Shown: positions 32,559 through 57,732, counted from the stretch's first letter. The stretch: 64,000 bases of DNA from Candidatus Woesebacteria bacterium GW2011_GWA1_39_21 (GCA_000993685.1 LBWP01000003.1:6196-70195); one strand, 5' to 3'. Translations and numbers: made by a program. The notes: generated by a model not told the origin, from the letters alone.

Positions 32559-32562
32559 TAAT

Positions 32563-34598: not shown

Positions 34599-34650
34599 CG
34601 CTTATGTCCTTGACTAGGAGGGTATCGACATTTAAAAATATAAGTAGTTT

Positions 34651-35394: not shown

Positions 35395-35530
35395 TTTTCT
35401 TCAGTTAATTTAATCATCGATACGTTGGCAACAATTACCTGTGAAACACCTTAGTGCTTTTGGGCAATTTAATCTTACACTGTTGTCTCTTCGGGTTCTT
35501 TCTGCCTTGACAGAGCTGTGAAAATATATA

Positions 35531-35560
35531 AGAATGGTGTAAAGTGGTGAAAAGTGGTAA
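35531..35560 (+). promoter_or_regulatory. Putative MraZ operator: three direct repeats with 10-bp periodicity just upstream of mraZ.
   Basis: agAATGGTGT / aaAGTGGTGA / aaAGTGGTAA at 35531, 35541 and 35551. A TTGACA sits at about 35505-35510 upstream. MraZ is known to bind three direct GTGG-containing repeats spaced 10 bp apart in its own promoter. Confidence 0.5.
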
Positions 35561-35580
35561 ATTATATATAGCTTTACTAC

Positions 35581-36027
35581 ATGTTGATCGGACAATATAT
35601 TTCAAAGATTACCGAAAAAAACAGAATTTCGCTACCAAAGAAATTTAGGAGTGAGCTTGGAGATAGGGTGATTATCGCAAAATGGTACGAAGGCTGTTGC
35701 GTGATTGTTTCTGAGGTCAGTTGGAATCAAATATTAAAGATGTTGACGGGAAGAATGAGTACATTAACAAGAGCAGTGAGAGATACTGACAGATTTATTT
35801 TAGGTTCAGCCTATGAATTAGACCTTGATCTTCAGGGAAGGTTTGTAATTCCAGGTACTCTTAAAGATTATGCAGATCTTTCCGAGGATGTGGTCTTTTT
35901 AGGTTTGGGGAACAGAATAGAATTATGGAATTTGGATGTCTGGGTGAAGAAGGAAAAGAGTGTTCAGGGAAGCGCTGAAGAAGCGCTCGAATCAATGGCT
36001 GTCCAAAGTACGTCAAATGAAGAATAA
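35581..36027 (+). CDS. mraZ: Transcriptional regulator MraZ.
   Basis: 148 aa. MLIGQYISKITEKNRISLPKKFR, and a second half with DLQGRFVIPGTLKDYADL (duplicated MraZ/SpoVT-AbrB-like halves). Confidence 0.85.
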   Translation: MLIGQYISKITEKNRISLPKKFRSELGDRVIIAKWYEGCCVIVSEVSWNQILKMLTGRMSTLTRAVRDTDRFILGSAYELDLDLQGRFVIPGTLKDYADLSEDVVFLGLGNRIELWNLDVWVKKEKSVQGSAEEALESMAVQSTSNEE

Positions 36028-37021
36028 TTTAATAGGGGTTTTGGAGCCTGTTCATAAACCAGTCCTGTTGAAAGAAGTGTTGGCAGCTTTTGAACATATT
36101 GCACCTTTAAATAATCAAGCTCACAAGGGTAATAAACCGATTGTTGTTGATGCGACATTGGGAGCTGGAGGACACGCGAAGGAGTTAATCCGACGCGGTT
36201 TTTACGTTTTGGGGATTGATGCAAATAGGAAGATGGTAAAAATTGCCGGGGAAAATTTACGAAATTTTGTTACAAGTGAATTTGCTCATCGGGCCGAGAG
36301 GCTCTCTGAGCCAGAGGCCTGCCCAACCGGAAATTTTGATGAATTCTTCAAAATCGTAACAAGTAATTTTGTATCTATTGATCGCGTTGCTCATGAAAGC
36401 GGATTTGAAAATGTTGATGGGATACTCTTTGATTTGGGAATTAGCTCGTATCACTATCAATTTTCAAGCGGATTTTCTTTCCAAAATCCAGATCTTGCCC
36501 TTGATATGCGTTTGTCCGATTCACAAAACGTTACGGCGGCAGATTTGTTGAATGCGCTTCCATATAAAAAGTTAGCGGAGTTATTCGCACAAACAATACC
36601 TGGGAAAGCAAAAAGATTGGCGAGATGTGTGGAACAGTCCCGCAGAAATCGTAAGATTGAAACAGTCGGCGACTTTTTGAAGATTGTCGACTCTGCAATT
36701 TTTATTACAAAGCGAATGGTCGGTAAGAACCAAAGCCCTTACACGCTGCCGTTTTTGGCCCTAAGAATTGCGGTAAATTACGAGCTTGATAATTTAAAAA
36801 TAGCACTGAATAAGTCATGCGGAGTTTTAAAAGATGGAGGTGTGTTAGCCGTTATCAGTTTCCATTCAGGTGAAGATAAAATCGTGAAGGATATTTTTAA
36901 AGACCTGGTGGAAAAAAAACTGATGAAATGGAAAGAAAAGTTAGTTATACCAAGTACAATTGAAATTTTAAACAATCCGAGGTCGAGGAGTGCAAAGTTG
37001 AGGGTAATTTCGAGATTATGA
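36017..37021 (+). CDS. rsmH: 16S rRNA (cytosine1402-N4)-methyltransferase RsmH (MraW).
   Basis: HKPVLLKEVL…VVDATLGAGGHAKELI, and DLGISSYHYQ. It directly follows mraZ. The start is set at the ATG at 36017 rather than the overlapping upstream ATG. Confidence 0.8.
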   Translation: MKNNLIGVLEPVHKPVLLKEVLAAFEHIAPLNNQAHKGNKPIVVDATLGAGGHAKELIRRGFYVLGIDANRKMVKIAGENLRNFVTSEFAHRAERLSEPEACPTGNFDEFFKIVTSNFVSIDRVAHESGFENVDGILFDLGISSYHYQFSSGFSFQNPDLALDMRLSDSQNVTAADLLNALPYKKLAELFAQTIPGKAKRLARCVEQSRRNRKIETVGDFLKIVDSAIFITKRMVGKNQSPYTLPFLALRIAVNYELDNLKIALNKSCGVLKDGGVLAVISFHSGEDKIVKDIFKDLVEKKLMKWKEKLVIPSTIEILNNPRSRSAKLRVISRL

Positions 37022-37308
37022 AAAATAACGCGGCGAAAGTAAAATTATTTTTGACAGCGACTTTACTTATTGGGTTTGTCGTAAATGGTGTGATTATTAC
37101 AATTTATAACGTTGACAAATCAACAGATACGGCTTCGATTACTTCACAAATTGACAAATTAAAAATGAAAAACAGTAAATTAACAGAGCAAATTTCGCAA
37201 GCGGATTCATTGACGGATTTGATGCGACAATCGAACGAGATTGGTTTTCAGGAAAGTTCTGATATCTTATACTTCAAACAAAGAGATACAATAGCTCAGG
37301 CGCGTTGA
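37018..37308 (+). CDS. ftsL: Cell division protein FtsL-like (small bitopic protein).
   Basis: 96 aa. TM (LFLTATLLIGFVVNGVIITIY), then a coiled-coil stretch. It lies in the canonical position between rsmH and ftsI. Confidence 0.55.
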   Translation: MKNNAAKVKLFLTATLLIGFVVNGVIITIYNVDKSTDTASITSQIDKLKMKNSKLTEQISQADSLTDLMRQSNEIGFQESSDILYFKQRDTIAQAR

Positions 37309-37309
37309 T

Positions 37310-39043
37310 ATGCAGCTAAGATTGAGAATTTACACAATTGTATCATTTGTCCTGTTTATAGTGCTTATTTCTCGTTTCTTTTATTGGCAAATAATCAGAT
37401 CGAAGGACCTATCAGATGAGGTTCGTCCACAACATGAGAAGAAATCGATTGAAGTTGCTTATCGCGGGAAAATTCTTGCGTCCGATGGGACGGTTCTTGT
37501 TGGTCAGGCAGATTCTTGGAATTTATTTGCCGAACCCAAAAGAATGATCAATTCTAATTCCGATGCGGAGAAGTTGTCGCAACTACTTGTTGAAGATGTT
37601 TATGACACGAAAATGCTCGGCGAAGAAGTAAGACGAATAGAGTCTTTGGTTTCAGATAAAAATAAATCTTGGGTACCTTTGAAAAACAGACTAACTACAG
37701 AAGTTAAAGATCAGATTGAAGCGCAAAAAATTGAAGGAATTGGTTTTGATAGAGACGAGGTAAGAGTCTATCCTGAAGCCTCAGCTGCAGCACAACTTCT
37801 TGGATTTCTTGGAAAAAATGATATAAGTGAAAATCAAGGTTATTTCGGTATAGAAGGTTTTTACCATACGACGCTGTCTGCATCGTATGGTATCGAGAAG
37901 CGGGAAACTGATCTTCGTGGTTTACCAATTCTTTTCGGTCAGAGCAAAAGCGTCCCTTCTTATTCTGGCGCTGATTTAGTTACTTATATCGACAAGGGTG
38001 TTCAACTTATGGCTGAAGAAGAATTGAAAAATGGTGTTGAGAAATACGGTGCTGTCAATGGTTCGGTGGTTGTTATTGATCCTTCAACCGGTGGTGTATT
38101 GGCGATGGCTTCTGTCCCTTCATTTGACCCGCGAAAATATTGGGAGTACGCCAACGACTTGTTTTTAAATCCCGTGATTTCCGCCTCGTTTGAACCTGGG
38201 TCAGTCTTCAAGATTATTACGATGGCTGCGGGACTGGATTCTAACGCAATAGATGTTGATACAAAATGTGACATTTGTTCTGGTCCGCTTCGGATGGGTG
38301 AATACACGATTCACACGTGGAACGATCAATATTTTCCGGAGTCTTCAATGACAGATATTATTGTTCATTCCGATAATGTTGGTATGGTGTTTGTTGCGCA
38401 AAAGACGGGGATTGATAAAAATTTACAGTATTTGGAAAAGTTCGGGCTTGGTAAAAAAACAGAAATCGACCTCCAGGGTGAGATGACGCCACAGTTGAGG
38501 AAAGAGAAAGATTGGAAAGAGATTGACTTGGCAACATCAAGTTTTGGGCAGGGAATAGCTGTAACACCAATCCAGATGATTAGTGCTGTCAATGTCATTG
38601 CAAATGACGGTGTGTCTATTAAACCAAAAGTTGTTAAACAAATTACTGTTGGTGATAAAGTTTATACAGTACAAGATTCGGAAACAGGACATCGCGTGAT
38701 ATCAAAAAATACTGCGGATGAAATTACGCAAATGATGGTGGAAGCTGCAAAATATGGTGAGTCAAAATGGACGTATAAAAGGGGTTACGGTGTTGCTGGA
38801 AAAACTGGTACTGCGCAGATACCCATTTCCGGCCACTATGATGCAGAAAAGACTGTTGCGAGTTTTGTTGGCTTTGCCCCTTACCGGAACCCTAAATTTA
38901 TTATGCTTGTAACTTTGAGAGAACCCAAAAGTTCCCAGTGGGCTTCCGAAACTGCAGCACCGCTCTGGTATAATATTGCTGAGAGATTATTTTTACATTT
39001 TGGCATAACTCCACAACCGGAGTATAATCGAGTATTACCGTGA
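37310..39043 (+). CDS. ftsI: Peptidoglycan D,D-transpeptidase FtsI (class B penicillin-binding protein).
   Basis: N-terminal TM, a dimerisation domain, and transpeptidase motifs SVFK (SxxK), SDN (HSDNVG) and KTGTA. Confidence 0.8.
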   Translation: MQLRLRIYTIVSFVLFIVLISRFFYWQIIRSKDLSDEVRPQHEKKSIEVAYRGKILASDGTVLVGQADSWNLFAEPKRMINSNSDAEKLSQLLVEDVYDTKMLGEEVRRIESLVSDKNKSWVPLKNRLTTEVKDQIEAQKIEGIGFDRDEVRVYPEASAAAQLLGFLGKNDISENQGYFGIEGFYHTTLSASYGIEKRETDLRGLPILFGQSKSVPSYSGADLVTYIDKGVQLMAEEELKNGVEKYGAVNGSVVVIDPSTGGVLAMASVPSFDPRKYWEYANDLFLNPVISASFEPGSVFKIITMAAGLDSNAIDVDTKCDICSGPLRMGEYTIHTWNDQYFPESSMTDIIVHSDNVGMVFVAQKTGIDKNLQYLEKFGLGKKTEIDLQGEMTPQLRKEKDWKEIDLATSSFGQGIAVTPIQMISAVNVIANDGVSIKPKVVKQITVGDKVYTVQDSETGHRVISKNTADEITQMMVEAAKYGESKWTYKRGYGVAGKTGTAQIPISGHYDAEKTVASFVGFAPYRNPKFIMLVTLREPKSSQWASETAAPLWYNIAERLFLHFGITPQPEYNRVLP

Positions 39044-40332
39044 ACATTAGAATTCAAGGTGGGCAAAAGTTAAACGGTGTAATTAAGCCTTCAGGTAGTA
39101 AAAACTCTGCTGTTTCAATCATTCCCTCCACATTGATGTTTGATACCCCAGTGACTTTGATGAACGTTCCAGAGATAACGGACGTAAATAAACTAATTGC
39201 CATCATGCAGAAACTGGGAAGCAAAATTGATTGGCAAAAAAAAGAAGGCGTGATGAAAATTGATAACCGAAAAATTTCTTTCGAAAAAGTTACGCGTGAA
39301 GATTGGAATGCAATGCGTGGAACATCACTTTTATGGGGTCCAATGCTTGCGCGATTTGGGAAAGTTGATTTTGGGGGATTACCTGGAGGTTGTACTCTTG
39401 GCTTTAGGACGCTTTCGCCACACTATAAAGCTTTTGAGGATTTGGGAGTGGAAGTCAAAGAGGGGGAAAATGGAATAAGAATGGATGCAGCTCGCGCCAA
39501 AGCTGGGAGTATTTGGCTTCGTGAAATGAGTCCGACTGCAACGGAGAACGCGATTATGCTAGCGCTGTCCTTGAAAGGAAATACGCAAATCTACGGTGCA
39601 GCATCAGAGCCACAAGTTCAAGATTTATGCATGTTTTTGAATAATGCCGGTGCTCATATTTCTGGTGTTAGTTCGAGTATCTTGAATATTGAAGGCGGGA
39701 ATACTTTGAGAAAAGTGGAATATGCAATGTTCAGCGATCATTACGAGATAGCTACTTTTTTGGCTATGGCGGCAATTACGGGTGGTCGTATTGAAGTCCA
39801 AAATTCGCAACCAGAACTTTTTGAGCATATCAACTATATTTTTTCCCGTTTCGGGGTTGTGGTTGATTATCACAAAACTACAGCGGTGGTTGAAGCCAAT
39901 CAGAAGATAAGGGTCATACCTGAAGATAGTGGAAGAAATTACTTAAGCATCAAGGCGCAGCCATGGCCATCGTTACCAGTTGATCTTCTTCCAATATATA
40001 TACCCATCTCTCTAAAAGCAAAAAGTGGTGTGACGCTTTTTCACAATTGGATGTACGATTCAGGGCTTTTCTGGACAAGCGAATTAACAAAACTGGGTGC
40101 AAATATTATCATGTGTGATCCGCACAGAATAATTACAATTGCCGGGGAGAAGCTAAGAGGAGCAACTATCGAGGCACCATATATTATCCGAGCTGTAGTT
40201 TCAATGGTTTTAGCATGTATGATTGCCGAGGGAGAATCAACAATTTTAAACGCGGATGCTCTCTATCGTGGCCATCCATATTTTGCCGAGAACCTTCAGA
40301 AACTGGGAGCAAAAATTGAAGAAGTGAAATGA
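39040..40332 (+). CDS. murA: UDP-N-acetylglucosamine 1-carboxyvinyltransferase MurA.
   Basis: MNIRIQGGQKLNGVIKPSGSKNSAVSIIP. 430 aa, EPSP-synthase fold length. Confidence 0.85.
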   Translation: MNIRIQGGQKLNGVIKPSGSKNSAVSIIPSTLMFDTPVTLMNVPEITDVNKLIAIMQKLGSKIDWQKKEGVMKIDNRKISFEKVTREDWNAMRGTSLLWGPMLARFGKVDFGGLPGGCTLGFRTLSPHYKAFEDLGVEVKEGENGIRMDAARAKAGSIWLREMSPTATENAIMLALSLKGNTQIYGAASEPQVQDLCMFLNNAGAHISGVSSSILNIEGGNTLRKVEYAMFSDHYEIATFLAMAAITGGRIEVQNSQPELFEHINYIFSRFGVVVDYHKTTAVVEANQKIRVIPEDSGRNYLSIKAQPWPSLPVDLLPIYIPISLKAKSGVTLFHNWMYDSGLFWTSELTKLGANIIMCDPHRIITIAGEKLRGATIEAPYIIRAVVSMVLACMIAEGESTILNADALYRGHPYFAENLQKLGAKIEEVK

Positions 40333-42578
40333 GAGCGCAAGACATCGTTGGGTTACTTCGTGAAGCATCTTTGTTGAAGAAATCAAACGTTATCCAAAAT
40401 GTAAATATTGTTGGAATTTCTGACGACTCCAGAAAAATCGCGAGAGGATTTTTGTTTGTTGCTGTAAAAGGCCTGAGGACAGACGGAAACAAGTATCTTG
40501 AAGATGCTATAAAAAGTGGAGCATCGACAATTGTTAGCGAACGCCCTTTCAAAAAAGCAGTTGTCGGTGAAAGGGTAAACTACATTCAGGTGCAAGACTC
40601 TAGAAAGGCTCTTTCACTTATTGCTGCGCTTTGGTATGAAAACCCGGCTGAAAAACTTAAAATTATTGGACTAACCGGGACTAAAGGAAAGACGACTGTT
40701 GCTCATCTTCTTCATCATATTTTTAACAAAGTAAAAATCGGGGTAGGTATGATTTCGACCGTGAATGCCGTAATTGCCAACGAAGTATCTGATACCGGAT
40801 TGCATGTAACCAATCCCGAACCGCTTCTTTTCCAATCGTTTCTAAAAAAGATGGTAGATAAAGGGCTAAAGTATGCCGTGTGTGAAATAACCTCACATGG
40901 GTTGGATCAGGAAAGGGTCTATGGGATTAATTACGAGGTGGGAGTTTTGACAAATATTACGCCAGAGCATCTGGATTACCACAAAACTTTCGCTAATTAC
41001 CGCCGTTCAAAACTGAAACTTTTTGAGAGGTCGAAAAAGTTAGTTGTTAATCGTGACGATCCGTCGTACAGAGTTATAAGACAAATGTTTAAGAACGACA
41101 AAAAGATGGCAAGCTACTCACTAAATGCAGATGCAGACATTGTTGGAAAAATACATCGGATGACAGAAGACTATATGGATTATGGAGTAGTCAAAGATGC
41201 GAAAGTGTACAGGGGAAGAATTAAGCTTTTGGGAAAATATAATTTATACAATGTTTTAGCTGCGGTTTGTGTTGCACAGCTGGAAGGAATAGGATTGAAA
41301 GCGTCAATGCGTGCGTTAGAGGATTTTCAACCTCCGGAAGGGCGCTTGGAGAAAGTGAATAATGAATTGGGAATTAATATTTATATTGATTTTGCGCATA
41401 CTCCAGATTCGCTTGAAAACTTACTACTTCTTTTAAAGAAAATGACAAAAAAACGACTAATCTGTGTTTTTGGTTGTGCGGGTGAAAGGGATAAAAGGAA
41501 GCGTTTTCAAATGGGTAAAATTTCAGGACGCTTGGCGGATTTAAGTATTATTACGGCGGAAGACCCCAGAACCGAGGATGTAAATGGAATATGTAGTCAG
41601 ATAAAAAGAGGAGCGTTGAAAGCGTTGGCAAAAGACTACTTTTCGAAAGATAATGCTGAAAGGAAATATTTGATTGTCCCCGATAGATATGAAGCAATAT
41701 ATTACTCGATTAAAAGTGTTGCTCAAACCGGCGATACGATTGTTATTTGTGGAAAGGGTCATGAAAACAGCATGTGTTATGGGAAAATTGAACATTTATG
41801 GAAGGATAGAATAGCGATTGAGAATGTGTTAAAAGCTGAGTACGGAAAGAATGCGATTATCTTAGCTGCCGGTAAAGGAAAGCGTCTAAACTCAGAAGCC
41901 CCAAAAGTGATTCTCGACATTGCGGAAAAACCAATAGTTAGTTATTGTGTGACTAATCTAAGGAGATCCGGTTTTTCAAACATTACTTTGGTGGTTGGAT
42001 ATCGAGCTTCAGATGTAATTAAAGAAATTGGCCCGACTGTAAATTATGCATTCCAAAGGACCGCTTTGGGTACTGGACATGCTGCTTGGCAAGGAATGAA
42101 AAATCTGAAAAGTGAAAGAACTATTTTAGTCGTTAACGGCGATGACAGTGCTTTCTATAAACCAGAAACTTTTGCCGCGGTTTTCCAAAGCCATCTTGAA
42201 TCCAAGGCAAAGTTGACCTTTACGAGTACGATTTTGGAAAATCCAACAGGAATTGGGAGATTGGTACGAGATATTAACGGAACACTGCTTCGTATTGTTG
42301 AGGAGAAAATCGCAAGCGAATCTGAAAAGAAAATTAAAGAATGCAATATTGGAATGTATGTATTTGATCGGGGATGGTTTTTGAAAAATATAAAGAAGGT
42401 GAAGAAAGGTACGGTTGGTGAGTATTATATTACTGACTTGATTGAAATTGCCGTAAGGCAGAATGATTTTATTAATGTTTTTCGTCTGAACGATTCGAGG
42501 CAGTGGTGTGGCATAAATACATGGGATGAACTTGAGCATGCAAATAAGAAGATGAATGAGGAAATTAATAAAACTTAG
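40329..42578 (+). CDS. murE: MurE (UDP-MurNAc-L-Ala-D-Glu:diamino-acid ligase) fused to a C-terminal GlmU-like sugar-1-phosphate nucleotidyltransferase domain.
   Basis: Residues 1-~495 carry IIGLTGTKGKTTVAHLL, DFAHTPDSLENLL and other Mur ligase motifs. Residues ~500-749 carry AIILAAGKGKRLNSEAPKVILDIAEKPIV…ALGTGHAAWQG…LVVNGDDSAF, which matches the GlmU N-terminal uridyltransferase domain (LAAGKGTRM…KVL…GTGHA…GD). Confidence 0.75.
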   Translation: MRAQDIVGLLREASLLKKSNVIQNVNIVGISDDSRKIARGFLFVAVKGLRTDGNKYLEDAIKSGASTIVSERPFKKAVVGERVNYIQVQDSRKALSLIAALWYENPAEKLKIIGLTGTKGKTTVAHLLHHIFNKVKIGVGMISTVNAVIANEVSDTGLHVTNPEPLLFQSFLKKMVDKGLKYAVCEITSHGLDQERVYGINYEVGVLTNITPEHLDYHKTFANYRRSKLKLFERSKKLVVNRDDPSYRVIRQMFKNDKKMASYSLNADADIVGKIHRMTEDYMDYGVVKDAKVYRGRIKLLGKYNLYNVLAAVCVAQLEGIGLKASMRALEDFQPPEGRLEKVNNELGINIYIDFAHTPDSLENLLLLLKKMTKKRLICVFGCAGERDKRKRFQMGKISGRLADLSIITAEDPRTEDVNGICSQIKRGALKALAKDYFSKDNAERKYLIVPDRYEAIYYSIKSVAQTGDTIVICGKGHENSMCYGKIEHLWKDRIAIENVLKAEYGKNAIILAAGKGKRLNSEAPKVILDIAEKPIVSYCVTNLRRSGFSNITLVVGYRASDVIKEIGPTVNYAFQRTALGTGHAAWQGMKNLKSERTILVVNGDDSAFYKPETFAAVFQSHLESKAKLTFTSTILENPTGIGRLVRDINGTLLRIVEEKIASESEKKIKECNIGMYVFDRGWFLKNIKKVKKGTVGEYYITDLIEIAVRQNDFINVFRLNDSRQWCGINTWDELEHANKKMNEEINKT

Positions 42579-44022
42579 CCGATCAGATAAAATCAGAATG
42601 AGAAGCCCCGATAAAGTTAAAAAAGTTCACTTGACTGGAATTAAAGGTGTAGGGATGACCGCACTCGCGACATATTACCAGGACATGGGAATGTTTGTTA
42701 CTGGCAGCGATGTTCCAGAAGCTTTTGTTACCGATGAAATATTGAAAAAGCGAAATATTGGTTGGAGTTTGGGGATAAGTAAAAAACATGTAAAACTTGG
42801 TTTTGATCTTTTGGTCACAACAGCCGCACATGGTGGACTTGAAAATGAGGAAGTCAAAAAGGCAAAACAATTAAAGATCCCCGTTTTAACGTATGCGGAA
42901 GCATTGGCACAGGCAAGCCTCGAGAAGGAAACAATTTGTGTTTGCGGGGTTGGTGGAAAAACTACTACTTGTTCGATGTTGTCAGTACTTCTTGATACAG
43001 CAGGATTAAACCCATCCTTTTTAGTCGGGGTGGGCAATATTTTTCCACTCGGAGTTTCCGGACGCTATGTAAAAGAAGGCAGAGTTTTTATTTGCGAGGC
43101 TGATGAGTACGCCGTTTCTCCCGGAGTTGATAACCGACCGAAATTCTCTCTTCTCAAGCCAAAAGTAATCATTGCTACCAATATTGAATATGACCATCCA
43201 GATATTTACCCCGATTTTGAAAAAACCAAAGAAACGTTTTTGCAATTTTTCAATAAACTTGGAAAGTATGGATATTTACTTGCTGACGCCGATAACAAAA
43301 ATACGATTGAGGTTGCAAAAAAATCAGATGCATATTTAATTACTTATGGCTTCGAAAAGAGTGCTGACTACCGAATTAAAAAAGTAAAGTATGCTGAACA
43401 AAGAACGAGCTTTGACCTCTATATAAAAAAGAAACGCCTACTTGTTGAAAACTTGACGATTAATGTTCCAGGAGAATTTAATATCAGAAACGCCGTGGCT
43501 GCTTTCGCAGTAGGGGATTTATTGGGAGTTGAGCAGGAAATATTAGTAAAGGGATTGCGACGATATTTGGGCTGCAGGCGCAGATTTGAAGAAATGATTT
43601 TTTATAAAAACGCAAGATTTTATGATGACTATGCACATCATCCGTCAGAAATAAAGGCGACATTGCAAGCTGCCCGTGAGTGGTTTCCCAAAAGGAGGAT
43701 TGTAGCTATTTTCCAACCACATACTTACTCAAGAACCAAAGCTTTATTCGAACAATTTGCCCAAAGTTTTGCTGATGCTGATGTTGTTGCATTAATGGAT
43801 ATTTATGCGTCTGCGAGAGAAAAATATGATCCAACGGTATCCTCAAAATTGTTGACGGAAGGTGTACATAAATATAATAAAAATACACATTATGTTGCTG
43901 ATCAAAAAACTACAGTAGCTTGGGTAAAGACAAACGTTAAGGCGGGGGATATTGTTTTAACAATGGGTGCGGGGAACATTTTTCACCTCTATGATTTGTT
44001 GAAGAAAAATCCAGTTAAATAA
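42556..44022 (+). CDS. murC: UDP-N-acetylmuramate--L-alanine ligase MurC.
   Basis: VHLTGIKGVGMTALATYYQDMGMFVTGSD, ICVCGVGGKTTTCSML, and DDYAHHPSEI. Confidence 0.8.
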   Translation: MRKLIKLSRSDKIRMRSPDKVKKVHLTGIKGVGMTALATYYQDMGMFVTGSDVPEAFVTDEILKKRNIGWSLGISKKHVKLGFDLLVTTAAHGGLENEEVKKAKQLKIPVLTYAEALAQASLEKETICVCGVGGKTTTCSMLSVLLDTAGLNPSFLVGVGNIFPLGVSGRYVKEGRVFICEADEYAVSPGVDNRPKFSLLKPKVIIATNIEYDHPDIYPDFEKTKETFLQFFNKLGKYGYLLADADNKNTIEVAKKSDAYLITYGFEKSADYRIKKVKYAEQRTSFDLYIKKKRLLVENLTINVPGEFNIRNAVAAFAVGDLLGVEQEILVKGLRRYLGCRRRFEEMIFYKNARFYDDYAHHPSEIKATLQAAREWFPKRRIVAIFQPHTYSRTKALFEQFAQSFADADVVALMDIYASAREKYDPTVSSKLLTEGVHKYNKNTHYVADQKTTVAWVKTNVKAGDIVLTMGAGNIFHLYDLLKKNPVK

Positions 44023-45082
44023 TGTTTACCTCGGGCGTGAGATCGATGCTGTAGGCTTTTTTAACATCCAACTTCATTTTTTCGGCAAATTTGAGAATCT
44101 CCTGCGCAGTTGCTCCTTTTTGTGTCATGACAACAAGAGATTGGTTTGGCGACGTTCCCACTTTTCCGATCCATTTTCCCTTCCAACCCAATTCTTCCAG
44201 AAGCCACCCGGCGGGTATCTTAACGTAATCCGAATATATAAACTTTGGGTCGTCGGGTTTTGGGTATGATAATTTGTCTATCGGATAGAACTGGATATTA
44301 GGAACTTTTTTTTGAATCCCGACAAGCTCCTTTTTGGTTATAACAGGATTTAAGAAAAAACTACCTGCTGTTCCTATTTTTTCCCAATCAGGAAATTTCC
44401 GTTCGCGAATTAGTGTTACAGCTTTTGAAGCATCCCTGATGTTGTAGGGAGGATTTGAAATTTTTGCCAACTCGTCTTCCAGTGACCCATACCGTGAATG
44501 GTATGAAGTATTTATTTCATCATTTTTCGCTAAGCGAAGGTTTACTTTGGTAATGATGAACCTATTTCTATAATCTTTTTTAAAAATACTTTCCCGGTAC
44601 CCGAATTTGCAAGCCTTTTTATCGAAGGAAATGGTCTTACCTGAAGCCATTTCGATTACTTCCAAAGAAACAAAGACGTCTTCGAAATTTTCACCATAAG
44701 CGGCGATGTTTTGGATGGCACCTGCCCCGACAGTGCCGGGAATCAAAGCCATATTTTCAACTCCGGAAAAACCGTTGTTGACAGCCCAAGCAACAAACCC
44801 GCTCCAGGATTCACCTGCCTGGATTTCGACTGTAATTTCTTTTTCGTCCTGATCAACAACAGCAATTCCTTTTGTCGCGATTTGGAGAATTGTCCCTGGG
44901 TAATCTTTGGTAAAAAGTGTGTTAGTGCCACTTCCGAGTACAAGCAGGTTATTGTTATATTTTTTATTTTGAAGAACTTTAACTATATCTTCGATTTTAC
45001 TAATAAGGATAAAACATTTTGCCTTGACGTCGACCTTAAACGAGTGCTTGTTTTTTAAGGAGAAGTTATGAAGAATTTTCAT
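44015..45082 (-). CDS. murB: UDP-N-acetylenolpyruvoylglucosamine reductase MurB (FAD-binding). The only dcw gene on the - strand here.
   Basis: LVLGSGTNTLFTKDYPGTIL, ALIPGTVGAGAIQNIAAYG, and the C-terminal KIPAGWLLEELGWKG. The ORF runs on to 45199, but that would overlap the murD start, so the start is set at the internal ATG at 45082. Confidence 0.75.
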   Translation of the reverse strand: MKILHNFSLKNKHSFKVDVKAKCFILISKIEDIVKVLQNKKYNNNLLVLGSGTNTLFTKDYPGTILQIATKGIAVVDQDEKEITVEIQAGESWSGFVAWAVNNGFSGVENMALIPGTVGAGAIQNIAAYGENFEDVFVSLEVIEMASGKTISFDKKACKFGYRESIFKKDYRNRFIITKVNLRLAKNDEINTSYHSRYGSLEDELAKISNPPYNIRDASKAVTLIRERKFPDWEKIGTAGSFFLNPVITKKELVGIQKKVPNIQFYPIDKLSYPKPDDPKFIYSDYVKIPAGWLLEELGWKGKWIGKVGTSPNQSLVVMTQKGATAQEILKFAEKMKLDVKKAYSIDLTPEVNII

Positions 45083-45134
45083 TATTTTGAGGTAATTATA
45101 ATATTGTACATCTGATGATACAATACTTGTATCG

Positions 45135-46505
45135 ATGTTGACTTTGAAATCTAAAATCGCCGTTTTGGGTTTGGGTGTTGAAGGGAAAGATACAATCAAT
45201 TATCTACAGAAAAAAGGTATAAATGACATTACTGTCTTTGACAAAAAAACAAAGAGCGATTTAGATTTGTCCGGTATTAATACTTCAGATTTAAAATTCA
45301 TTACAGGAGCGGATTATCTTAAAACTGGCTTGACAGTTTATAAAACAATTTTCAGATCGCCTGGGGTATACCGATTTTTGCCGGAAATTATCACGGCTGA
45401 AAAGTCAGGTAGCGTAATTACGAGCAATATTAAACTTTTCTTTGAAAAATTTAACGGTGTAAGTATTGGAGTTACTGGTACGAAAGGGAAGGGGACAACG
45501 TGCACTTTGATTTATGAGATGCTCAAAAAAAGCGGGAAGAATGTATATTTAACAGGGAATATTGGATCTCCCCCGTTATCGGTTTTGGACGAGGTTGGGG
45601 AGAGCTCAGTTGTTGTTTTAGAACTTTCTTCATTTCAACTTATTGATTTGCAAAAAAGTCCCGACATTGCGGTTGTCTTGAATGTTACAAGCGACCACAT
45701 GGATTGGCATAAAAATCAGAAAGAGTATGTCGATGCTAAAAAAAATATCGTGAAACAACAAGATGAAGACGACTTTAAAGTAATTAATTTTGACTACAAA
45801 ACCTCAAAAGATTTCGCCGACCTCTCCCCTTCTAAAAATTACTTTTTTAGTAAAAATGAAAAAGTTGTTGGCGGGTATGTTGAGAATGGAGTAATTTATC
45901 TGAAAATTGAAGGGAAGTTGTCGAAAATCGGAAACACTAAAGACTTACTTTTACGGGGAAAACATAATTGGGAAAATGTTTGTGCCGCAGCTTGTACGTC
46001 TTATCTTGCGGGTGCGGATCTAAAGAGTATTGAAAAAACAGTTTTTTCCTTTAAGGGTTTGGAGCACAGACTAGAACTGGTTGGTGAGGTGGATGGTGTA
46101 AAATATTACAACGACTCTTTTTCAACAAACCCTCAAACAACAATTGCTGCAGTTGATTCTTTTTTTGAACCGACGACTTTGATTATAGGGGGCTATGATA
46201 AGGGATTAGATTTTAATCAAATGGCCAAACATTTATCTAAAACCAAAAATCTAAAAAATATTCTTCTTATTGGTGATCTTGAAGATAAGCTTTACGAATT
46301 GTTAAAAAAATATAAATCTGAAAACTTAATTATAAGGATGGGTAAACCTGGAATGTCGCAAATTTTAGAGAAATGTAAAGAGGTTACTAAAAAAGGTGGT
46401 GTAGTTTTGCTCTCGCCTGCATGTGCTTCTTTTGACATGTTTGAAAATTACAAGGAGCGTGGAAATCAATTTAAAAAATGCGTGATGAACCTAATTGGAA
46501 GCTAA
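45135..46505 (+). CDS. murD: UDP-N-acetylmuramoyl-L-alanine--D-glutamate ligase MurD.
   Basis: IAVLGLGVEGKD (Rossmann start), GVTGTKGKGTTCTLIYEML, and DSFSTNP in the C-terminal domain. Confidence 0.8.
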   Translation: MLTLKSKIAVLGLGVEGKDTINYLQKKGINDITVFDKKTKSDLDLSGINTSDLKFITGADYLKTGLTVYKTIFRSPGVYRFLPEIITAEKSGSVITSNIKLFFEKFNGVSIGVTGTKGKGTTCTLIYEMLKKSGKNVYLTGNIGSPPLSVLDEVGESSVVVLELSSFQLIDLQKSPDIAVVLNVTSDHMDWHKNQKEYVDAKKNIVKQQDEDDFKVINFDYKTSKDFADLSPSKNYFFSKNEKVVGGYVENGVIYLKIEGKLSKIGNTKDLLLRGKHNWENVCAAACTSYLAGADLKSIEKTVFSFKGLEHRLELVGEVDGVKYYNDSFSTNPQTTIAAVDSFFEPTTLIIGGYDKGLDFNQMAKHLSKTKNLKNILLIGDLEDKLYELLKKYKSENLIIRMGKPGMSQILEKCKEVTKKGGVVLLSPACASFDMFENYKERGNQFKKCVMNLIGS

Positions 46506-46509
46506 ATCA

Positions 46510-47460
46510 TTACCACTTACCTTTTTCTACGAAATTTCTAAACAGTTGTATCACATCTTTAGTGACGTGTCCGACTTTTCCGTTACCTATCTTTTTCTTA
46601 TCAACTTTCACAACTGGCATGACCTCTTTGTTGCTTGCAGTTAAAAAGACCTCATCGGCAGAAAAGATGTCGGATAATTTTATCGGTCTTTTTATGACCG
46701 GATAAATTATATGACAAAGACTGATGACCAGGTCTCTTGTAATACCGAAAAGAATCTTATTGTCGCTCGTGTAGATTTGCTTATTTTTGACGATAAAGAC
46801 ATTACTTGTAGTTGCCTCTGTAATATTACCTGATTTTTCGTCGTAATAAACTGCTTCAATACATCCGCTTTTTTTCGCTAAATTTAACGCCCTAATTGCG
46901 ACTGAATATTCGAGAGATTTGATTTCAGGGAAAGGACGGGAATATTTGTACGAGAGGGCTTTTGCACCATTTTCAAAAAGCGCATTTGGGTAAAAGTGAC
47001 GGTCCTCGACGATAACAATAATTGAGGCTTTAGCAGAAGGTTCGGTCGATGAATTTCCAACACCGCCGGTTATTAGAATACGAATTGTTTTTTCTTTTCC
47101 GTTTATGTTTTTTGAAAGCGTGTTGTTGACGATGCTTTCAATTTCTCTTTTTGTCTTTCCAATCGTTAAACCCAATATCTTTGCAGAATTAAAAAGTCGG
47201 TCAATGTGCCGGTCGATAAGAAATGGCCGATTATTATAAGTGACAAGAAAATCAAAAACGCCAAAGCCGCGAAGCAGTCCGATATCTAAAACACTAATTA
47301 CCGCCTTACTTTCAGGCAAATAATTTCCATTTATATAATGACATCCTCCCCGCCTTAAAAGGCGGGGTTTCTCCAAGGAGGATGACATATCAGAGTTCAA
47401 TTCATCCCCACCCTGAAGGGTGGGGTTTTCTTGAACGCTGTTATAAATTGGCACACTCAT
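46510..47460 (-). CDS. Class IV (fold type IV) aminotransferase, D-amino-acid or branched-chain aminotransferase-like. The N-terminus is uncertain: the first ~40 codons are encoded by the repeat element.
   Basis: INGNYLPESKAVISVLDIGLLRGFGVFDFLVTY aligns with the N-terminus of Dat/IlvE enzymes (xNGxxxxxxeAxIsxxDxGxxxGDGVFE). There is no canonical start codon right before this block. The ATGs at 47460 and 47388 both lie inside the repeat copy. Confidence 0.6.
   Translation of the reverse strand: MSVPIYNSVQENPTLQGGDELNSDMSSSLEKPRLLRRGGCHYINGNYLPESKAVISVLDIGLLRGFGVFDFLVTYNNRPFLIDRHIDRLFNSAKILGLTIGKTKREIESIVNNTLSKNINGKEKTIRILITGGVGNSSTEPSAKASIIVIVEDRHFYPNALFENGAKALSYKYSRPFPEIKSLEYSVAIRALNLAKKSGCIEAVYYDEKSGNITEATTSNVFIVKNKQIYTSDNKILFGITRDLVISLCHIIYPVIKRPIKLSDIFSADEVFLTASNKEVMPVVKVDKKKIGNGKVGHVTKDVIQLFRNFVEKGKW
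47338..47450 (+). repeat. Copy 1 of the modular structured repeat element. This is the compact version.
   Basis: atgacatcctcc-CCGCCTTaaaAGGCGGGG-tttctccaa-ggaggatgacat, then atcagagttcaattcat, then ccccaccctgaagggtggggttttctt, then gaacgctgttataaattg. It shares a 14-mer with copy 3 (ggaggatgacatat) and most of its length with the reverse complement of 58972-59155. Confidence 0.6.
47406..47432 (+). terminator. Intrinsic-terminator-like hairpin inside repeat copy 1.
   Basis: CCCCACCC-tgaa-GGGTGGGG followed by TTTTCTT. No + strand gene ends nearby, so it is more likely the 3' end of the element's own transcript, or a bidirectional insulator. Confidence 0.35.
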
Positions 47461-47572
47461 TTAACATGTTCTAACAACTACAGATTATTATATAGGTAGA
47501 TTAAGTTAAAATAACAATCAATCTATCCTCCTAAGTCCGGCTGCTTCTGCAGCCTTTAATATATTTGCACCC

Positions 47573-47701
47573 TTACTTCTCTTTTTTGGGTAGTTTGCCT
47601 AATTCTTTTTGAAGCGTTTGTACTTGGACATCTGGTTCGATAAGAGTTTTAGAATTTTCTAATGAAATGGGTTTGGTTTGAGCAAGTGCCTCGCCTGTCA
47701 T
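47573..47701 (-). CDS. Unannotated 42-aa small ORF with a strong SD. Low confidence.
   Basis: Minus strand: GGGGGGTGAtacttATG ACA GGC GAG… gives MTGEALAQTKPISLENSKTLIEPDVQVQTLQKELGKLPKKEK*. It is too short for the supplied ORF track and lies in a ~430-bp region otherwise lacking genes. Confidence 0.25.
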   Translation of the reverse strand: MTGEALAQTKPISLENSKTLIEPDVQVQTLQKELGKLPKKEK

Positions 47702-47889
47702 AAGTATCACCCCCCCTTAAACAATTAGTAGATAATACCACATATTCAAGTAATTTATGAGGGGACGCGAAAAGATGTTAAAATAAACCAATACTGACAG
47801 TTAAGCCCAAGATCTTGTGTCGACAAGAAGGTTTTTTCTTCAACCACGGACGCGTAGTCCCCGGCTTTGAAGAGAAATTTAATATAAAC

Positions 47890-48603
47890 ATGATAGACAA
47901 AAATATAGTAGTTCTTCACGGATGGGGGGCACATCGACAAAGATTAGCTCCGCTTGTATCAGAATTAAGGAATAAAAGATGGAACGTTTTTTTTCCTAAA
48001 TTGCCTGGGTTTGGCGGTGGAGAACTAACCAGAGCTTACAACTTGGAAGATTATGTTTTACAGGTTGTGAATGAATCTGCAAAAAGATTTGCCGGAAAGA
48101 AGTATTTTGTTTTTGGTCACTCTTTTGGCGGGCGAATTGCTATTAAGCTTTCACTTTCTGATCAAAATTTGTCTGGTTTGATTCTTTGTGCGTCGGGAGG
48201 AATATCGAGAGGAAAATTTATCAAAAGAGCGGTATTTTACATGCTTGCAAAAACAGGCAGGGTGTTTCTTTTCCATAAACCGCTAGCCGACCGTTTTAGA
48301 AAAATTTTGTACAAAGCTGCCAGAGAGCATGATTATGAGAAGACCTCGGGATATGTTAAAGAGACATTTAAAAACGTAGCCTCAGAAGATTTGAGAAAAT
48401 TAGCTAAAACAATTAAGACCCCGACACTGATCTTGTGGGGGAAAAATGATAAGATGACTCCGTATAAAGATGCTTTATATTTGAACAGGAGCATAAAAGA
48501 CAGTGAGCTTGTCAGCTATACAAACGACGGACATACGCTGCCCTATGTTGAACCTGAAGAAATATCCAAAAAAATTGAAATATGGTATCAGAATTTGTCT
48601 TAA
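47890..48603 (+). CDS. Alpha/beta-fold hydrolase.
   Basis: IVVLHGWGAH…(nucleophile elbow) FVFGHSFGGRIAIKL…LILWGKNDKMTP…DGHTLPY (Ser-Asp-His triad context). The track's upstream extension from 47815 is not believed. Confidence 0.6.
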   Translation: MIDKNIVVLHGWGAHRQRLAPLVSELRNKRWNVFFPKLPGFGGGELTRAYNLEDYVLQVVNESAKRFAGKKYFVFGHSFGGRIAIKLSLSDQNLSGLILCASGGISRGKFIKRAVFYMLAKTGRVFLFHKPLADRFRKILYKAAREHDYEKTSGYVKETFKNVASEDLRKLAKTIKTPTLILWGKNDKMTPYKDALYLNRSIKDSELVSYTNDGHTLPYVEPEEISKKIEIWYQNLS

Positions 48604-49469
48604 TACTTTATTTTTTGATTATCTACCTTTTGTGGTTATTAACTTGTGTGTTACAGGTTTTGGTGTGGACTTATTGGGTTCAGGTTAAGGAATACAGATT
48701 CGATCGCTTATGGTCATTTTTTAAAACCTCTGATGGTAAGAGTAAATTATTTTTCTACTTTTTCTTACTTAAAAGCGTGTCGTTACCGTTGGGATTTTTG
48801 TCGAAGTTTTTAGTGCCGTTTACTGTCCCATACCTCACTATTTTGTTGATGATAATTATTTTTAAAAGTAAAGCCATTGGTTTTCGAAAACCAGTTCTGA
48901 CAAAAAGAATGCAAATTATTTTATTATTTTCTTTTTTGCCTCTCTTGATGCCACTAATTCTGCCGTTAAATCTCGGAATTATTTTAGGTGAATTTCTGCT
49001 GCCTATTGGCACTGTATGTGGCGTAGTTGTAACTAGCTATTTAACGAGGAAAACCAAGTTGAAGGAAAAACTGGAAGCCGTTGAAAAATTAAGAAAAGTT
49101 AATCCGTTTGTAATTGCAATAACTGGAAGTTACGGGAAGACTACAACAAAAGATTTTGTTACACATTTTCTGTCACAAAAATACAAAACTCAAAAAACGG
49201 AAAAAAGTGAAAATACTTTTTTTGGAGTTGTTCGGACAATTAATAACAAGTTAACTAACGATACAAGATACTTCGTTTGTGAAATAGGTGCGTACAAAAA
49301 GGGAGAAATTAAAGAACTTGCTGAGGTGGTTAAACCTAAAATGGCAATTATTACGGGAATCGAACCACAACATGTTGATCTTTTCGGCTCAATGAATAAT
49401 CTTAAGGATGCGAAATTTGAAATCGTTGATAGCTTGAAAAATGAAGGATTTGCAATTTTCAATCTCTGA
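48582..49469 (+). CDS. murF: MurF-like Mur ligase, N-terminal and central-domain fragment. It has an unusual ~170-aa polytopic membrane N-terminus, and the frame is broken before the C-terminal domain.
   Basis: Residues 1-~170 are hydrophobic helices. Then come VIAITGSYGKTTTKDFV (P-loop) and CEIGAYKKGEIKELAEVVKPKMAIITGIEPQHVDLFGS (Mur ligase central domain). The ORF ends at 49469. The C-terminal domain continues in another frame from 49475. Confidence 0.55.
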   Translation: MVSEFVLILYFLIIYLLWLLTCVLQVLVWTYWVQVKEYRFDRLWSFFKTSDGKSKLFFYFFLLKSVSLPLGFLSKFLVPFTVPYLTILLMIIIFKSKAIGFRKPVLTKRMQIILLFSFLPLLMPLILPLNLGIILGEFLLPIGTVCGVVVTSYLTRKTKLKEKLEAVEKLRKVNPFVIAITGSYGKTTTKDFVTHFLSQKYKTQKTEKSENTFFGVVRTINNKLTNDTRYFVCEIGAYKKGEIKELAEVVKPKMAIITGIEPQHVDLFGSMNNLKDAKFEIVDSLKNEGFAIFNL

Positions 49470-49474
49470 ATGAG

Positions 49475-50050
49475 GTGCAGTTTAGTGTGCTGGAAAACGG
49501 GAAACAAGTTAACAATAAGTTCACAGTAAAAACAACGGGGGTACATTTTATTGAAAATATAAGTTGTGCGATATTAATCTCAAGGATTTTAGGTTTGTCG
49601 TGGGTAGAAATTGAGAAAGCCATGTCTTCGCTTATAACTCCCGAAGGTACGATGTCTCTTATCAAAACAGTGACTGGTGCCATAATAATAAACGATAGTT
49701 ATAACAGCTCGCAAAAAAGTTTCACTGCAGCGCTTGACTATTTGTCATTTTTTAAAAATAAAAAGAAGGTTGTGATAAGTAGCGGAATAATAGAGCTCGG
49801 AGAGTTTTCTCAAAAAATACATGAAGATTTGGGAGTGAAGATGTCCGAATTAATCGATAAAGTTATAGTTACAAATAAAGATAACGCTTTATATATTTTA
49901 AATGGCATGGCAGACAAGAGCAAAATTAAGTATGAAGCCAATCTCCAAATTTTGAAAAAAATGTTTCTGAAGTCTATTGACGACAGCGATGTAATTTTAC
50001 TTGAAGGAAGACAACCCTCGGCGATTATGGATGTAGTTAAAAGTTTATGA
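49475..50050 (+). CDS. murF: MurF-like Mur ligase, C-terminal domain fragment. It is in a different frame from the upstream fragment, so this is a split gene or a frameshift.
   Basis: IINDSYNSSQKSFTAALDYL…VVISSGIIELGEFSQKIHEDLG matches the Mur ligase C-terminal domain (DSYNANPxS…LGxMxELG…H). It starts with GTG in the track. Confidence 0.5.
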   Translation: MQFSVLENGKQVNNKFTVKTTGVHFIENISCAILISRILGLSWVEIEKAMSSLITPEGTMSLIKTVTGAIIINDSYNSSQKSFTAALDYLSFFKNKKKVVISSGIIELGEFSQKIHEDLGVKMSELIDKVIVTNKDNALYILNGMADKSKIKYEANLQILKKMFLKSIDDSDVILLEGRQPSAIMDVVKSL

Positions 50051-51297
50051 AGCCTGTTGTAATTTCGATTTCACCAAATACAGAGAAGGATGATATTTTA
50101 TTGTCTTTACGTGTGCTACTTTCGCCGTGGAAATGGTTTGATGAAAAAGCTGTTTCTGACTTCGAAAATAAATTTGCCTCGTATTTTGGAAAAAATTATA
50201 AAGCCCTTGCTGTAAATAGCGGAAGGTCGGCGGAGTTTCTCATTTTAAAAGCGATGGATATAAGAAAAGGTGACTTTGTAGCAATACAGGCGCTTACTTG
50301 TATCGCTGTTTCAAATCCTATTTTATGGAACGATGCGTTGCCACTATACGTTGATGTTGATGATTCCTACAACATGGATGTTGGGGACCTTGAGAAAAAG
50401 TTAAACGGCGATGTAAGGTGTGTTATTGTTCAGCATTCTTTTGGTGTACCCGCGAAAGTTGAAGAAATTGCAAGAGTGGCAAAGAAGCATAATATTTCAG
50501 TCATTGAAGACTGCGCGGTTTCGATGGGGGGTAAATATAATGGTAAAAAATTAGGAACTTTTGGAGATATTTCCTTTTTTAGTTTTGGAAGAGATAAGGT
50601 AATTTCATCGGTGTTTGGTGGAATGATACTGACATCTAACCAAAATTATTATAAAAAACTCAGATTGTTAAGGGACAATTTGGCAGAACCGCCAAAATCT
50701 TGGGTGATACGTCAACTACTACACCCAATACTTTTTTCGTTTATTAAACCTTCATATTTTTTGGGTTTTAGAAAATACTCAATTGGAAAAATGCTTTTGT
50801 TTGTTTCTCAGAAGTTAAGGATTTTAGACAAAGCTGTTTACGAAAAGGAAAAAAGAGGTAAAAAACCAGAACTTTTTCCCTCGAAAATGCCGGGTGCTTT
50901 GGCTGTGTTGGCTTTACACCAGTTTAATAAACTCGATAAATTTAACAAAAGAAGGATTGGTTTTCATAATAGTTATTTAAAAATGTTGGAAGGAACTAAT
51001 TTCCGATGTCCAAGCGGTGTCGAAGGGGCAATTTGGCTTCGTGTTCCTATTCACGAGTTAAAGTCAAAGGAAATAATAGAATTTGCTAAACGTCAGAATA
51101 TTTTATTGGGTGATTGGTACAATAAAGTTGTAACACCAGCGTTAGATCTAGAAGTTATCGGTTATAGAAAAGGAAGTTGCCCGGCGGCCGAGATGTATGC
51201 AGGGTGTTTACTTAATTTACCAACATACCCATTGATGGAAAATTCTGACGTTGAAAATGTTGTTTCAGTTTTGAAATTATGGGAAAGTACGAAGTAA
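50047..51297 (+). CDS. DegT/DnrJ/EryC1/StrS-family PLP-dependent aminotransferase (sugar aminotransferase-like).
   Basis: ALAVNSGRSAEFLILKAM, VIEDCAVSMGGKYNGKKLGTFGDISFFSFGRDKVISSVFGGMIL (contains the Schiff-base Lys). Confidence 0.6.
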   Translation: MKPVVISISPNTEKDDILLSLRVLLSPWKWFDEKAVSDFENKFASYFGKNYKALAVNSGRSAEFLILKAMDIRKGDFVAIQALTCIAVSNPILWNDALPLYVDVDDSYNMDVGDLEKKLNGDVRCVIVQHSFGVPAKVEEIARVAKKHNISVIEDCAVSMGGKYNGKKLGTFGDISFFSFGRDKVISSVFGGMILTSNQNYYKKLRLLRDNLAEPPKSWVIRQLLHPILFSFIKPSYFLGFRKYSIGKMLLFVSQKLRILDKAVYEKEKRGKKPELFPSKMPGALAVLALHQFNKLDKFNKRRIGFHNSYLKMLEGTNFRCPSGVEGAIWLRVPIHELKSKEIIEFAKRQNILLGDWYNKVVTPALDLEVIGYRKGSCPAAEMYAGCLLNLPTYPLMENSDVENVVSVLKLWESTK

Positions 51298-52301: not shown

Positions 52302-52338
52302 GCGAAAATTATAGGCGTTATAATACTTAATACTACTT

Positions 52339-53394: not shown

Positions 53395-53409
53395 CCTTTT
53401 TTTATATTT

Positions 53410-57562: not shown

Positions 57563-57732
57563 ATTAACTTAACTCACAAGATATTTCTAATTTGGGGGTA
57601 ACTAAATAACTACAGACCGAAAGCTTTTATTTGCTAAAAAAATTGCAAATTTTTAAAATATGCATTGTTGTCATATTTGGACTGCGAGTTGTTTTTTACA
57701 TTGCCCCATAATAAAATCACGGAAATAGATAT

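Follow-up and report, generated by a model that had tools for sequence, protein, structure and literature searches.

A MurE ligase fused to a GlmU-type uridylyltransferase domain in the dcw cluster of a Candidatus Woesebacteria genome

Adjacent genes of the division and cell wall (dcw) cluster are sometimes found as one polypeptide, and natural Mur chimeras of this kind have been described as MurE-MurF, MurC-Ddl, MurB/MurC, MurG-MurC, MurD-FtsW and MraY-MurG (PMC10214165, PMC4803751). A published census, from which unidentified species were excluded, comprises six types, none with GlmU (PMC10214165). Here we report the analysis of a stretch of 64,000 nucleotides (nt), called the window below, from an uncultured groundwater bacterium, Candidatus Woesebacteria bacterium GW2011_GWA1_39_21. 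In this stretch a single open reading frame (ORF; 40329..42578, + strand) probably encodes a genuine bifunctional protein, the ligase MurE followed by a GlcNAc-1-phosphate (GlcNAc-1-P) uridylyltransferase corresponding to the N-terminal half of GlmU (GlmU-N; fusions are written with a double colon, as MurE::GlmU-N). Like the known chimeras, which are lineage-specific, often linkerless and often join non-consecutive steps, it presents adjacent dcw genes as one polypeptide, two peptidoglycan-pathway enzymes being combined in one conserved ORF that recurs across genomes. It differs from them in its partner, which is no more than one half of an enzyme acting before the Mur steps, in UDP-N-acetylglucosamine (UDP-GlcNAc) synthesis. 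Both the sequences and their Pfam architecture can be seen in public databases; the fusion type itself is not among published Mur chimeras, and full-text searches returned no description of a MurE::GlmU-N fusion, or of a GlmU devoid of its left-handed β-helix (LbH) domain in the Candidate Phyla Radiation (CPR)/Patescibacteria.

Isolated GlmU N-terminal fragments retain uridyltransferase activity. The pyrophosphorylase domain of E. coli GlmU was studied as a unit in a truncated protein of 331 residues (1fwy/1fxj), which matches the window domain at 1e-24; whereas this laboratory construct retains part of LbH, the truncation seen here is natural and complete, and occurs stand-alone or fused. Compared with full-length GlmU (1g97, 2v0h, 9dqf), the 242 C-terminal residues of the window protein align end to end with the N-terminal domain (33-34% identity) and superpose on it as a model at 1.6-2.0 Å, but the LbH half, responsible for acetyl transfer and trimerisation, is lacking and the domain is appended to MurE. 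The MurE part resembles solved MurE enzymes (E. coli 1e8c, M. tuberculosis 2wtz, S. aureus 4c13, T. maritima 4bub) by its three-domain Mur ligase organisation, its P-loop and its scores above curated cut-offs. It differs from them by the extra C-terminal enzyme and by an EDPR motif instead of DNPR (type adding meso-diaminopimelic acid, mDAP) or DNPA (S. aureus Lys type).

The ORF codes for 749 residues plus a stop. Its product is 100% identical to GenBank KKR11772.1 / UniRef100_A0A0G0RDN2, a Candidatus Woesebacteria entry named ‘UDP-N-acetylmuramyl-tripeptide synthetase’. Pfam recognised the three Mur ligase domains, Mur_ligase PF01225 at residues 27-103, Mur_ligase_M PF08245 at 116-316 (4e-48) and Mur_ligase_C PF02875 at 338-477 (2e-29), followed by NTP_transferase PF00483 at 509-744 (8e-22). 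An initial annotation, made from the DNA alone, had described a complete MurE and a GlmU-type N-terminal uridyltransferase domain in a single ORF with the acetyltransferase hexapeptide part missing; Pfam and NCBIfam bear this out, neither giving a Hexapep or LbH match in the 749 residues. All of the motifs it had quoted were located in the protein, among them GTKGKTT at 117, DFAHTPDSL at 354, LAAGKGKRL at 512-520, GTGHA at 581 and NGDD at 603. It had placed the end of MurE around residue 495; the ORF does run on without a stop as it stated, and the end lies nearer to residue 503.

The second domain (41850..42575, + strand; residues 508-749) was compared with nucleotidyltransferase families. 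The best NCBIfam match was GlmU NF010934, of which positions 1-242 out of 447 aligned with residues 508-748 (2.5e-61, 211 bits). Other families scored far lower, 107 bits for archaeal GlmU, 82 for AglF, 76 for RmlA(-long) and 44 for MurU, leaving GlmU a margin of more than 100 bits over any of them. Identity as MurU, RmlA, GalU or AglF was thus rejected on score margins, and the suspicion that the C-terminal domain might score better to an unrelated family did not materialise. The best sequence matches in the PDB were likewise all GlmU (S. aureus 9dqf, 2.8e-41; H. influenzae 2v0h, 4e-32; S. pneumoniae 1g95, about 2e-31).

We then mapped, through an alignment with H. influenzae GlmU and in E. 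coli numbering, residues which we take, from the structural literature, to have catalytic, metal-binding or UDP-GlcNAc-contacting roles. All twelve (R18, K25, Q76, G81, T82, D105, G140, E154, N169, E195, Y197 and N227) have their equivalent in the window domain, where R519, K526, Q576, G581, T582, D605, G643, E658, N673, E698, Y700 and N730 are the predicted active-site residues. Each of them is at least 96% conserved in 120 fusion proteins; over the 81 loci of the census described below, whether fused or not, the figure is at least 95%. The GlmU signature L-x2-G-x-G-T-x-M-x4-P-K, for which the family consensus is GTRM, appears as L512-AAGKGKRLNSEAPK526. Finally, the C-terminus of the domain falls within a helix which, in full-length GlmU, connects to the LbH domain. 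We assign the domain, from its sequence, to the GlmU branch and not to the bifunctional GlmU equivalog, of which it lacks the LbH half and misses the cut-offs; it most likely works like the uridyltransferase half of GlmU.

The MurE part (40329..41837, + strand) covers residues 1-503, with the three Mur ligase domains and the P-loop GTKGKTT at residues 117-123 (nt 40677-40697). It scored above the curated thresholds of the NCBIfam MurE equivalog NF001126 (residues 17-503, 472 bits for a cut-off of 373) and of TIGR01085 (449 bits for a cut-off of 257). Motifs G117-T-K-G-K-T-T123, DFAHTP, GCAGERD and GKGHE are invariant or nearly so among 61-120 homologues. The DNPR motif, which plays a role in mDAP-adding MurE enzymes (PMC3829189), was not found; the amino-acid-site motif reads E411-D-P-R414, the Arg being retained and the Asn replaced by Asp. 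With EDPR instead of DNPR the third residue of the stem peptide is therefore not predictable. This bears on which amino acid is added and not on membership of the MurE family, to which residues 1-503 belong by every feature considered save that motif. This part would thus be the ligase adding the third amino acid to UDP-MurNAc-L-Ala-D-Glu.

An AlphaFold2 model built from 61 homologues gave a mean predicted local distance difference test (pLDDT) of 92.5 and a predicted template modelling score (pTM) of 0.88 for the whole protein. The modelled C-terminal domain superposed on S. pneumoniae GlmU 1g97, solved with bound UDP-GlcNAc and Mg2+, at 1.6 Å over 245 columns, and the modelled MurE part on solved MurE structures with TMt values of 0.82-0.89, the highest being that of S. 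aureus 4c13 (0.89). At the junction (41805..41867, + strand) the last MurE helix (493-502) is followed by a loop (503-506) and directly by the first nucleotidyltransferase strand (507-513). The connector is thus of about four residues with no inserted linker, and pLDDT is 94-95 over the junction in the model. We found no PDB entry spanning both parts.

An ORF of this type might arise from a sequencing error masking a stop codon, or from a false assembly join of two genes, and the initial annotation had named a hidden stop near 41.8 kb as what could undo the fusion. The assembly is indeed not flawless. The murF gene of the window consists of two ORFs in different frames (48582-49469 and 49475-50050) with a break at 49465, at which position three independent ENA assemblies (L083-L085) have 151 extra nt and encode an intact MurF of 539 residues; the split is a deletion or assembly artefact of the record, or a rare variant. 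Because of this defect, checking the fusion against independent assemblies mattered. The DNA around 41.8 kb is in an unbroken frame free of stops, and the same three assemblies match window positions 30329-49465 at 99.9% identity with zero gaps and are continuous over the junction. The identical protein is recorded on 18 contigs, and a variant with the single change K47Q on a further one. Moreover, the 120 best homologues (42-59% identity, 635-783 residues), which come from many samples, all combine Mur ligase domains with PF00483 in an unbroken architecture; one of them is carried by a closed Woesebacteria chromosome of 1.08 Mb. Closed or nearly complete genomes with the fusion include CP066686.1, DAITMO010000001 and JBEKNE010000001. 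MurE::GlmU-N was also found at 34 census loci. Independent assemblies and homologues together rule out an artefactual origin of the fusion, whose probability we consider vanishingly small.

To find relatives, a profile of the junction and second domain was run against GTDB species, each represented by one genome. The census took the best 80 of 172 relatives with 10-kb flanks which, with the window, made 81 loci after removal of duplicates; ORFs were labelled by phmmer with seed proteins. A stand-alone GlmU-N of about 245-280 residues was present at 41 of the 81 loci and MurE::GlmU-N, window included, at 34. The remainder were GlmU-N::MurC (4 loci), GlmU-N::HAD (1 locus) and a MurE::GlmU-N::MurC::MurB protein of 1519 residues (1 locus; L005, 2292-6851). 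A MurE::GlmU-N::MurC protein of 1216 residues (P0062) was confirmed separately. A gene coding for GlmU-N only is thus regularly found in the dcw cluster of Microgenomates-type Patescibacteria. The fused form is carried by Woesebacteria and by unclassified Microgenomates or Patescibacteria. Separate genes in the order murE, GlmU-N, murC occur in Woykebacteria, Chisholmbacteria and others, and the order in Levybacteria is murF-murE-murC-murA-GlmU-N. The view that the fusion is not a standard dcw architecture holds for bacteria in general; within Woesebacteria it is the norm.

Where the two genes are unfused, the stop of murE and the start of GlmU-N typically share 1-14 nt, often as ATGA and also as TAATG. 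In fused proteins the spacing from EHPWSD of MurE to AAGKG of the second domain is 18-19 residues, roughly the MurE tail plus the GlmU-N head minus a few residues. Comparison of the loci, with this overlap and the expected length of the connector, thus shows that the fusion arose by stop-codon loss between coupled neighbours. In Microgenomates-type Patescibacteria a GlmU gene stripped of its LbH half resides in the dcw cluster, with murE before it and murC after it, and begins before murE has ended. In Woesebacteria the murE stop codon was lost and the two translationally coupled genes became one; in other lineages the same GlmU-N gene was captured by its other neighbour, murC.

Other long ORFs were seen in relatives. 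GlmU-N::MurC proteins are of about 665 residues, MurC::MurB of about 730 and MurB::MurD of about 726-730; loci with multi-enzyme fusions include L005, P0062, L041, L050, L077, L082, L001 (13097-15289), L014 and L016. MurD ORFs are overlong, 817-846 residues, at L021, L026 and L031. Concerning the records themselves, many species-representative metagenome-assembled genomes titled ‘uncultured Gammaproteobacteria bacterium’ (L003, L008, L010, L012 and others) contain a Patescibacteria-type dcw cluster with the fusion. One record titled ‘Alphaproteobacteria’ also has the fusion; in another, titled ‘Nanoarchaeia archaeon’, the arrangement is of Patescibacteria type and unfused. Such titles look like placeholder or wrong taxonomy.

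Several observations weigh against reading the ORF as MurE plus a GlcNAc-1-P uridylyltransferase. The domain misses the curated whole-protein cut-offs for GlmU (NF010934, 211 bits for 450; TIGR01173, 180 for 367), because half of the model is absent from the protein. In the signature, K and L of the window replace T and M of the canonical GxGTRM, and NGDDSAFY is invariant in the family where GlmU has xGDxPL; sugar specificity could thus differ in detail from that of GlmU. The 51 ORFs of 150 or more residues in the 64-kb window include no acetyltransferase partner, separate glmU, LbH-type GlcN-1-P acetyltransferase, glmS or glmM. A crude neighbour-joining tree showed one large fused clade with the window, L003 and L031 apart from it, and the fusion events appear to number one or two. 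Finally, the rigid packing of the domains that the pTM of 0.88 suggests is a prediction only.

Alternatively, the C-terminal domain could activate another sugar-1-phosphate instead of acting as a UDP-GlcNAc pyrophosphorylase, whether MurNAc-1-P (as MurU does, bypassing MurA and MurB), GlcN-1-P acetylated at a later stage, or Glc-1-P. With the acetyltransferase half lost, the usual source of GlcNAc-1-P is gone, and Patescibacteria are scavengers. NGDDSAFY, together with Y103N, departs from E. coli-type GlmU, and one relative of the domain (P0170) is fused to an APH-type kinase, which resembles the salvage pairs of anomeric kinase and uridylyltransferase. MurU of the AmgK-MurU recycling pathway, likewise a small uridylyltransferase for a sugar-1-P that stands alone, has the same fold and feeds the Mur pathway; the window domain, however, belongs to the GlmU branch and matches the MurU model NF045761 weakly, at 43.7 bits for a cut-off of 250. 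Against another sugar also stand the lead of the GlmU models by more than 100 bits, the conservation of the GlcNAc-contacting T82, G140, E154 and N169, the retention of murA and murB next to the fusion gene, and the association of the gene with glmS and a YvcK-type protein in relatives. We therefore regard a different substrate as improbable. The GlmU-N domain would most probably catalyse GlcNAc-1-P + UTP -> UDP-GlcNAc + pyrophosphate, and the product would feed MurA, whose gene lies immediately upstream, and MurG. In relatives the GlmU-N gene is found near murA, glmS and the YvcK-type gene, a link to UDP-GlcNAc.

What the two activities gain from being on one chain is a separate matter. The initial annotation had proposed channelling of UDP-GlcNAc or UDP-MurNAc precursors, or a modified precursor synthesis. 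This found no support: channelling is unlikely because four enzymes, MurA, MurB, MurC and MurD, come after UDP-GlcNAc formation and before the MurE step, and gene adjacency is a simpler cause. A functional coupling can be conceived in which GlmU-N docks rigidly on MurE, sensing UDP-GlcNAc or UTP to regulate it, or nucleates a Mur complex that passes on UDP-linked intermediates. The predicted pTM of 0.88 for a four-domain chain with an ordered four-residue connector would suit such a role, as would the presence of the domain in MurC fusions, in MurE::GlmU-N::MurC and in MurE::GlmU-N::MurC::MurB; Mur chimeras have moreover been argued to stabilise the Mur complex (PMC10214165). The two reactions, however, are non-consecutive, the gene stands by itself in about half of the related species, and the catalytic residues are fully conserved, so that the domain is not a dead sensor. 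All told, we hold coupling of this sort to be improbable. As to why a MurE::GlmU-N protein would be kept, obligatory 1:1 co-expression, stability of a non-trimeric domain and/or assembly of a Mur complex may be invoked. Without LbH the canonical GlmU homotrimer is not expected, and being joined to a Mur ligase may make up for the stability lost with it. The authors of the Mur-chimera study similarly favour stability, fixed stoichiometry or complex assembly over channelling (PMC10214165).

The acetylation step normally carried out by GlmU would have to be supplied in trans, or bypassed by GlcNAc salvage. In the main Woesebacteria clade a frequent gene order is murA, yvcK, glmS, GNAT (opposite strand) and murE::glmU-N; the YvcK-type protein matches TIGR01826 (‘UDP-GlcNAc-binding protein YvcK’) with 231 bits for a cut-off of 196. 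Examples of this arrangement are L001 (5003-12034), L017 (4348-8728) and L025 (8275-8769). The GNAT gene adjoins the fusion and glmS in 10 species loci, and in 4 of the 10 it is itself fused as HAD::GNAT. Levybacteria-type loci have GlmU-N and glmS separated by a HAD gene, and fusions exist in both orders, GlmU-N::HAD and HAD::GlmU-N. Searches of NCBIfam and of PDB sequences gave only generic or insignificant matches for the GNAT and HAD proteins. A homologue search with a single GNAT sequence returned the query alone; with a profile, 40 proteins were retrieved, all small GNATs from Woesebacteria and Shapirobacteria, among which there was no fusion of GNAT to the nucleotidyltransferase domain.

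From the GlmU-N::HAD, HAD::GlmU-N and HAD::GNAT fusions and from the glmS-GNAT-murE::glmU-N and GlmU-N-HAD-glmS neighbourhoods, a more far-reaching proposal can be made, namely that in Microgenomates-type Patescibacteria the GlmM/GlmU route has been replaced by a set wired into the dcw cluster. GlmU-N, free or fused to MurE or MurC, would act with a lineage-specific GNAT that N-acetylates as eukaryotic GNA1 does, and with a HAD enzyme that would be either the mutase for hexosamine phosphates or a pyrophosphatase that drives the reaction forward. The eukaryote-type route (GNA1, AGM1, UAP1) likewise has a uridylyltransferase without built-in acetyltransferase and a separate GNAT. The parallel is one of analogy, with no homology to GNA1 or UAP1 shown, and the GNAT has no specific family and is absent from the window. 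We consider such a replacement rather unlikely, but if true, the MurE fusion would mark a physically integrated assembly leading from UDP-GlcNAc to the Mur steps. Other solutions may exist in single relatives. L058 (8712-9989) and L080 (about 8723-9965) have, between murE and GlmU-N, a gene resembling archaeal GlmU (425 residues, nucleotidyltransferase plus LbH; TIGR03992 255 bits, below the cut-off of 292), which is a possible trans-acting acetyltransferase there. The APH-type kinase fusion seen in one relative would fit salvage of GlcNAc by way of an anomeric kinase.

An exhaustive phmmer search with the second domain against 1.84 billion cluster representatives returned 372 representatives at E ≤1e-30. 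Among the best 147 retrieved, 93 are stand-alone proteins of 230-300 residues. The 42 longer proteins among these 147 include 16 with hexapeptide repeats (true GlmU type), 7 with HAD and 6 with Mur ligase domains, and one each with a PGM/PMM mutase, an APH-type kinase and a C39 peptidase domain. This makes truncated GlmU a mobile module; its partners are several and related to the pathway, MurE being the commonest near the window organism. Individual LbH-less fusions (P0129, P0128, P0199, P0216, P0170, P0194, P0131 and P0150) have HAD at either end or a PGM/PMM-type mutase (950 residues), P0170 being the one with the APH-type kinase. The domain also occurs N-terminal to a Mur ligase, and with a C39 peptidase domain.

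In the window the fusion gene belongs to a dcw cluster (35581..58896, + strand unless marked) comprising mraZ, rsmH, an ftsL-like gene, a penicillin-binding protein gene, murA, murE::glmU-N, murC, murB (-), murD, a class IV aminotransferase gene (-), a hydrolase gene, murF, a degT-like gene, a femAB-like gene, mraY, ftsW, murG, an uncertain ftsQ-like gene, ftsA and ftsZ. Upstream, murA (39040..40332, +), the UDP-GlcNAc consumer (NF006873, 351 bits for a cut-off of 297), overlaps the fusion start by 4 nt through its stop; downstream, murC (42556..44022, +) starts within the fusion ORF and shares its last 23 nt.

Further along the cluster, a recurrent module (48582-52301) associates a long MurF with a DegT/PseC-type sugar aminotransferase and a FemAB-family protein. 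The MurF of the module is of about 530-600 residues, with an N-terminal extension of about 165. The same module was seen at L008, L010, L022, L031, L060, L065, L070, L071 and L079, and suggests a lineage-specific precursor modification or a branch on the stem peptide. The class IV aminotransferase (46510-47460, -) is of the branched-chain or D-amino-acid transaminase type, under all curated cut-offs, and sits where relatives have murI and ddl, two genes that the 64-kb window lacks; transamination by this enzyme may be a source of D-Glu.

The window also contains a large surface-glycan cluster (5185-28607) with a flippase, an initiating Bac_transf transferase, a Wzy_C protein, more than 10 GT2/GT4 glycosyltransferases and three membrane glycosyltransferases of the PMT_2 family. 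To this cluster belong two ORFs that were considered in the search for a separate glmU, LbH-type acetyltransferase, glmS or glmM. The hexapeptide protein at 17597-18232 is a WcaF-type polysaccharide O-acetyltransferase, and the ORF at 26857-27915 encodes a ManC-type GDP-mannose enzyme. Three large ORFs (30-2039, 2369-5104 and 13877-15370) gave no Pfam match.

MurE::GlmU-N would be a seventh type of natural Mur chimera and the first to tie UDP-GlcNAc synthesis to a Mur ligase. The two-, three- and four-enzyme polypeptides found here (MurE::GlmU-N, GlmU-N::MurC, MurE::GlmU-N::MurC and MurE::GlmU-N::MurC::MurB) are attractive for structural work on the proposed cytoplasmic Mur complex. They also reveal an annotation gap, since the names given to these proteins go no further than ‘MurE’, ‘NTP transferase domain-containing protein’ or ‘hypothetical protein’; as a consequence, GlmU may be counted as missing when the metabolism of Patescibacteria is reconstructed, or as complete despite the lost acetyltransferase half. 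The finding raises the question of where GlcNAc-1-P comes from in organisms whose sole recognisable GlmU has no acetyltransferase domain, a question that bears on their dependence on a host.

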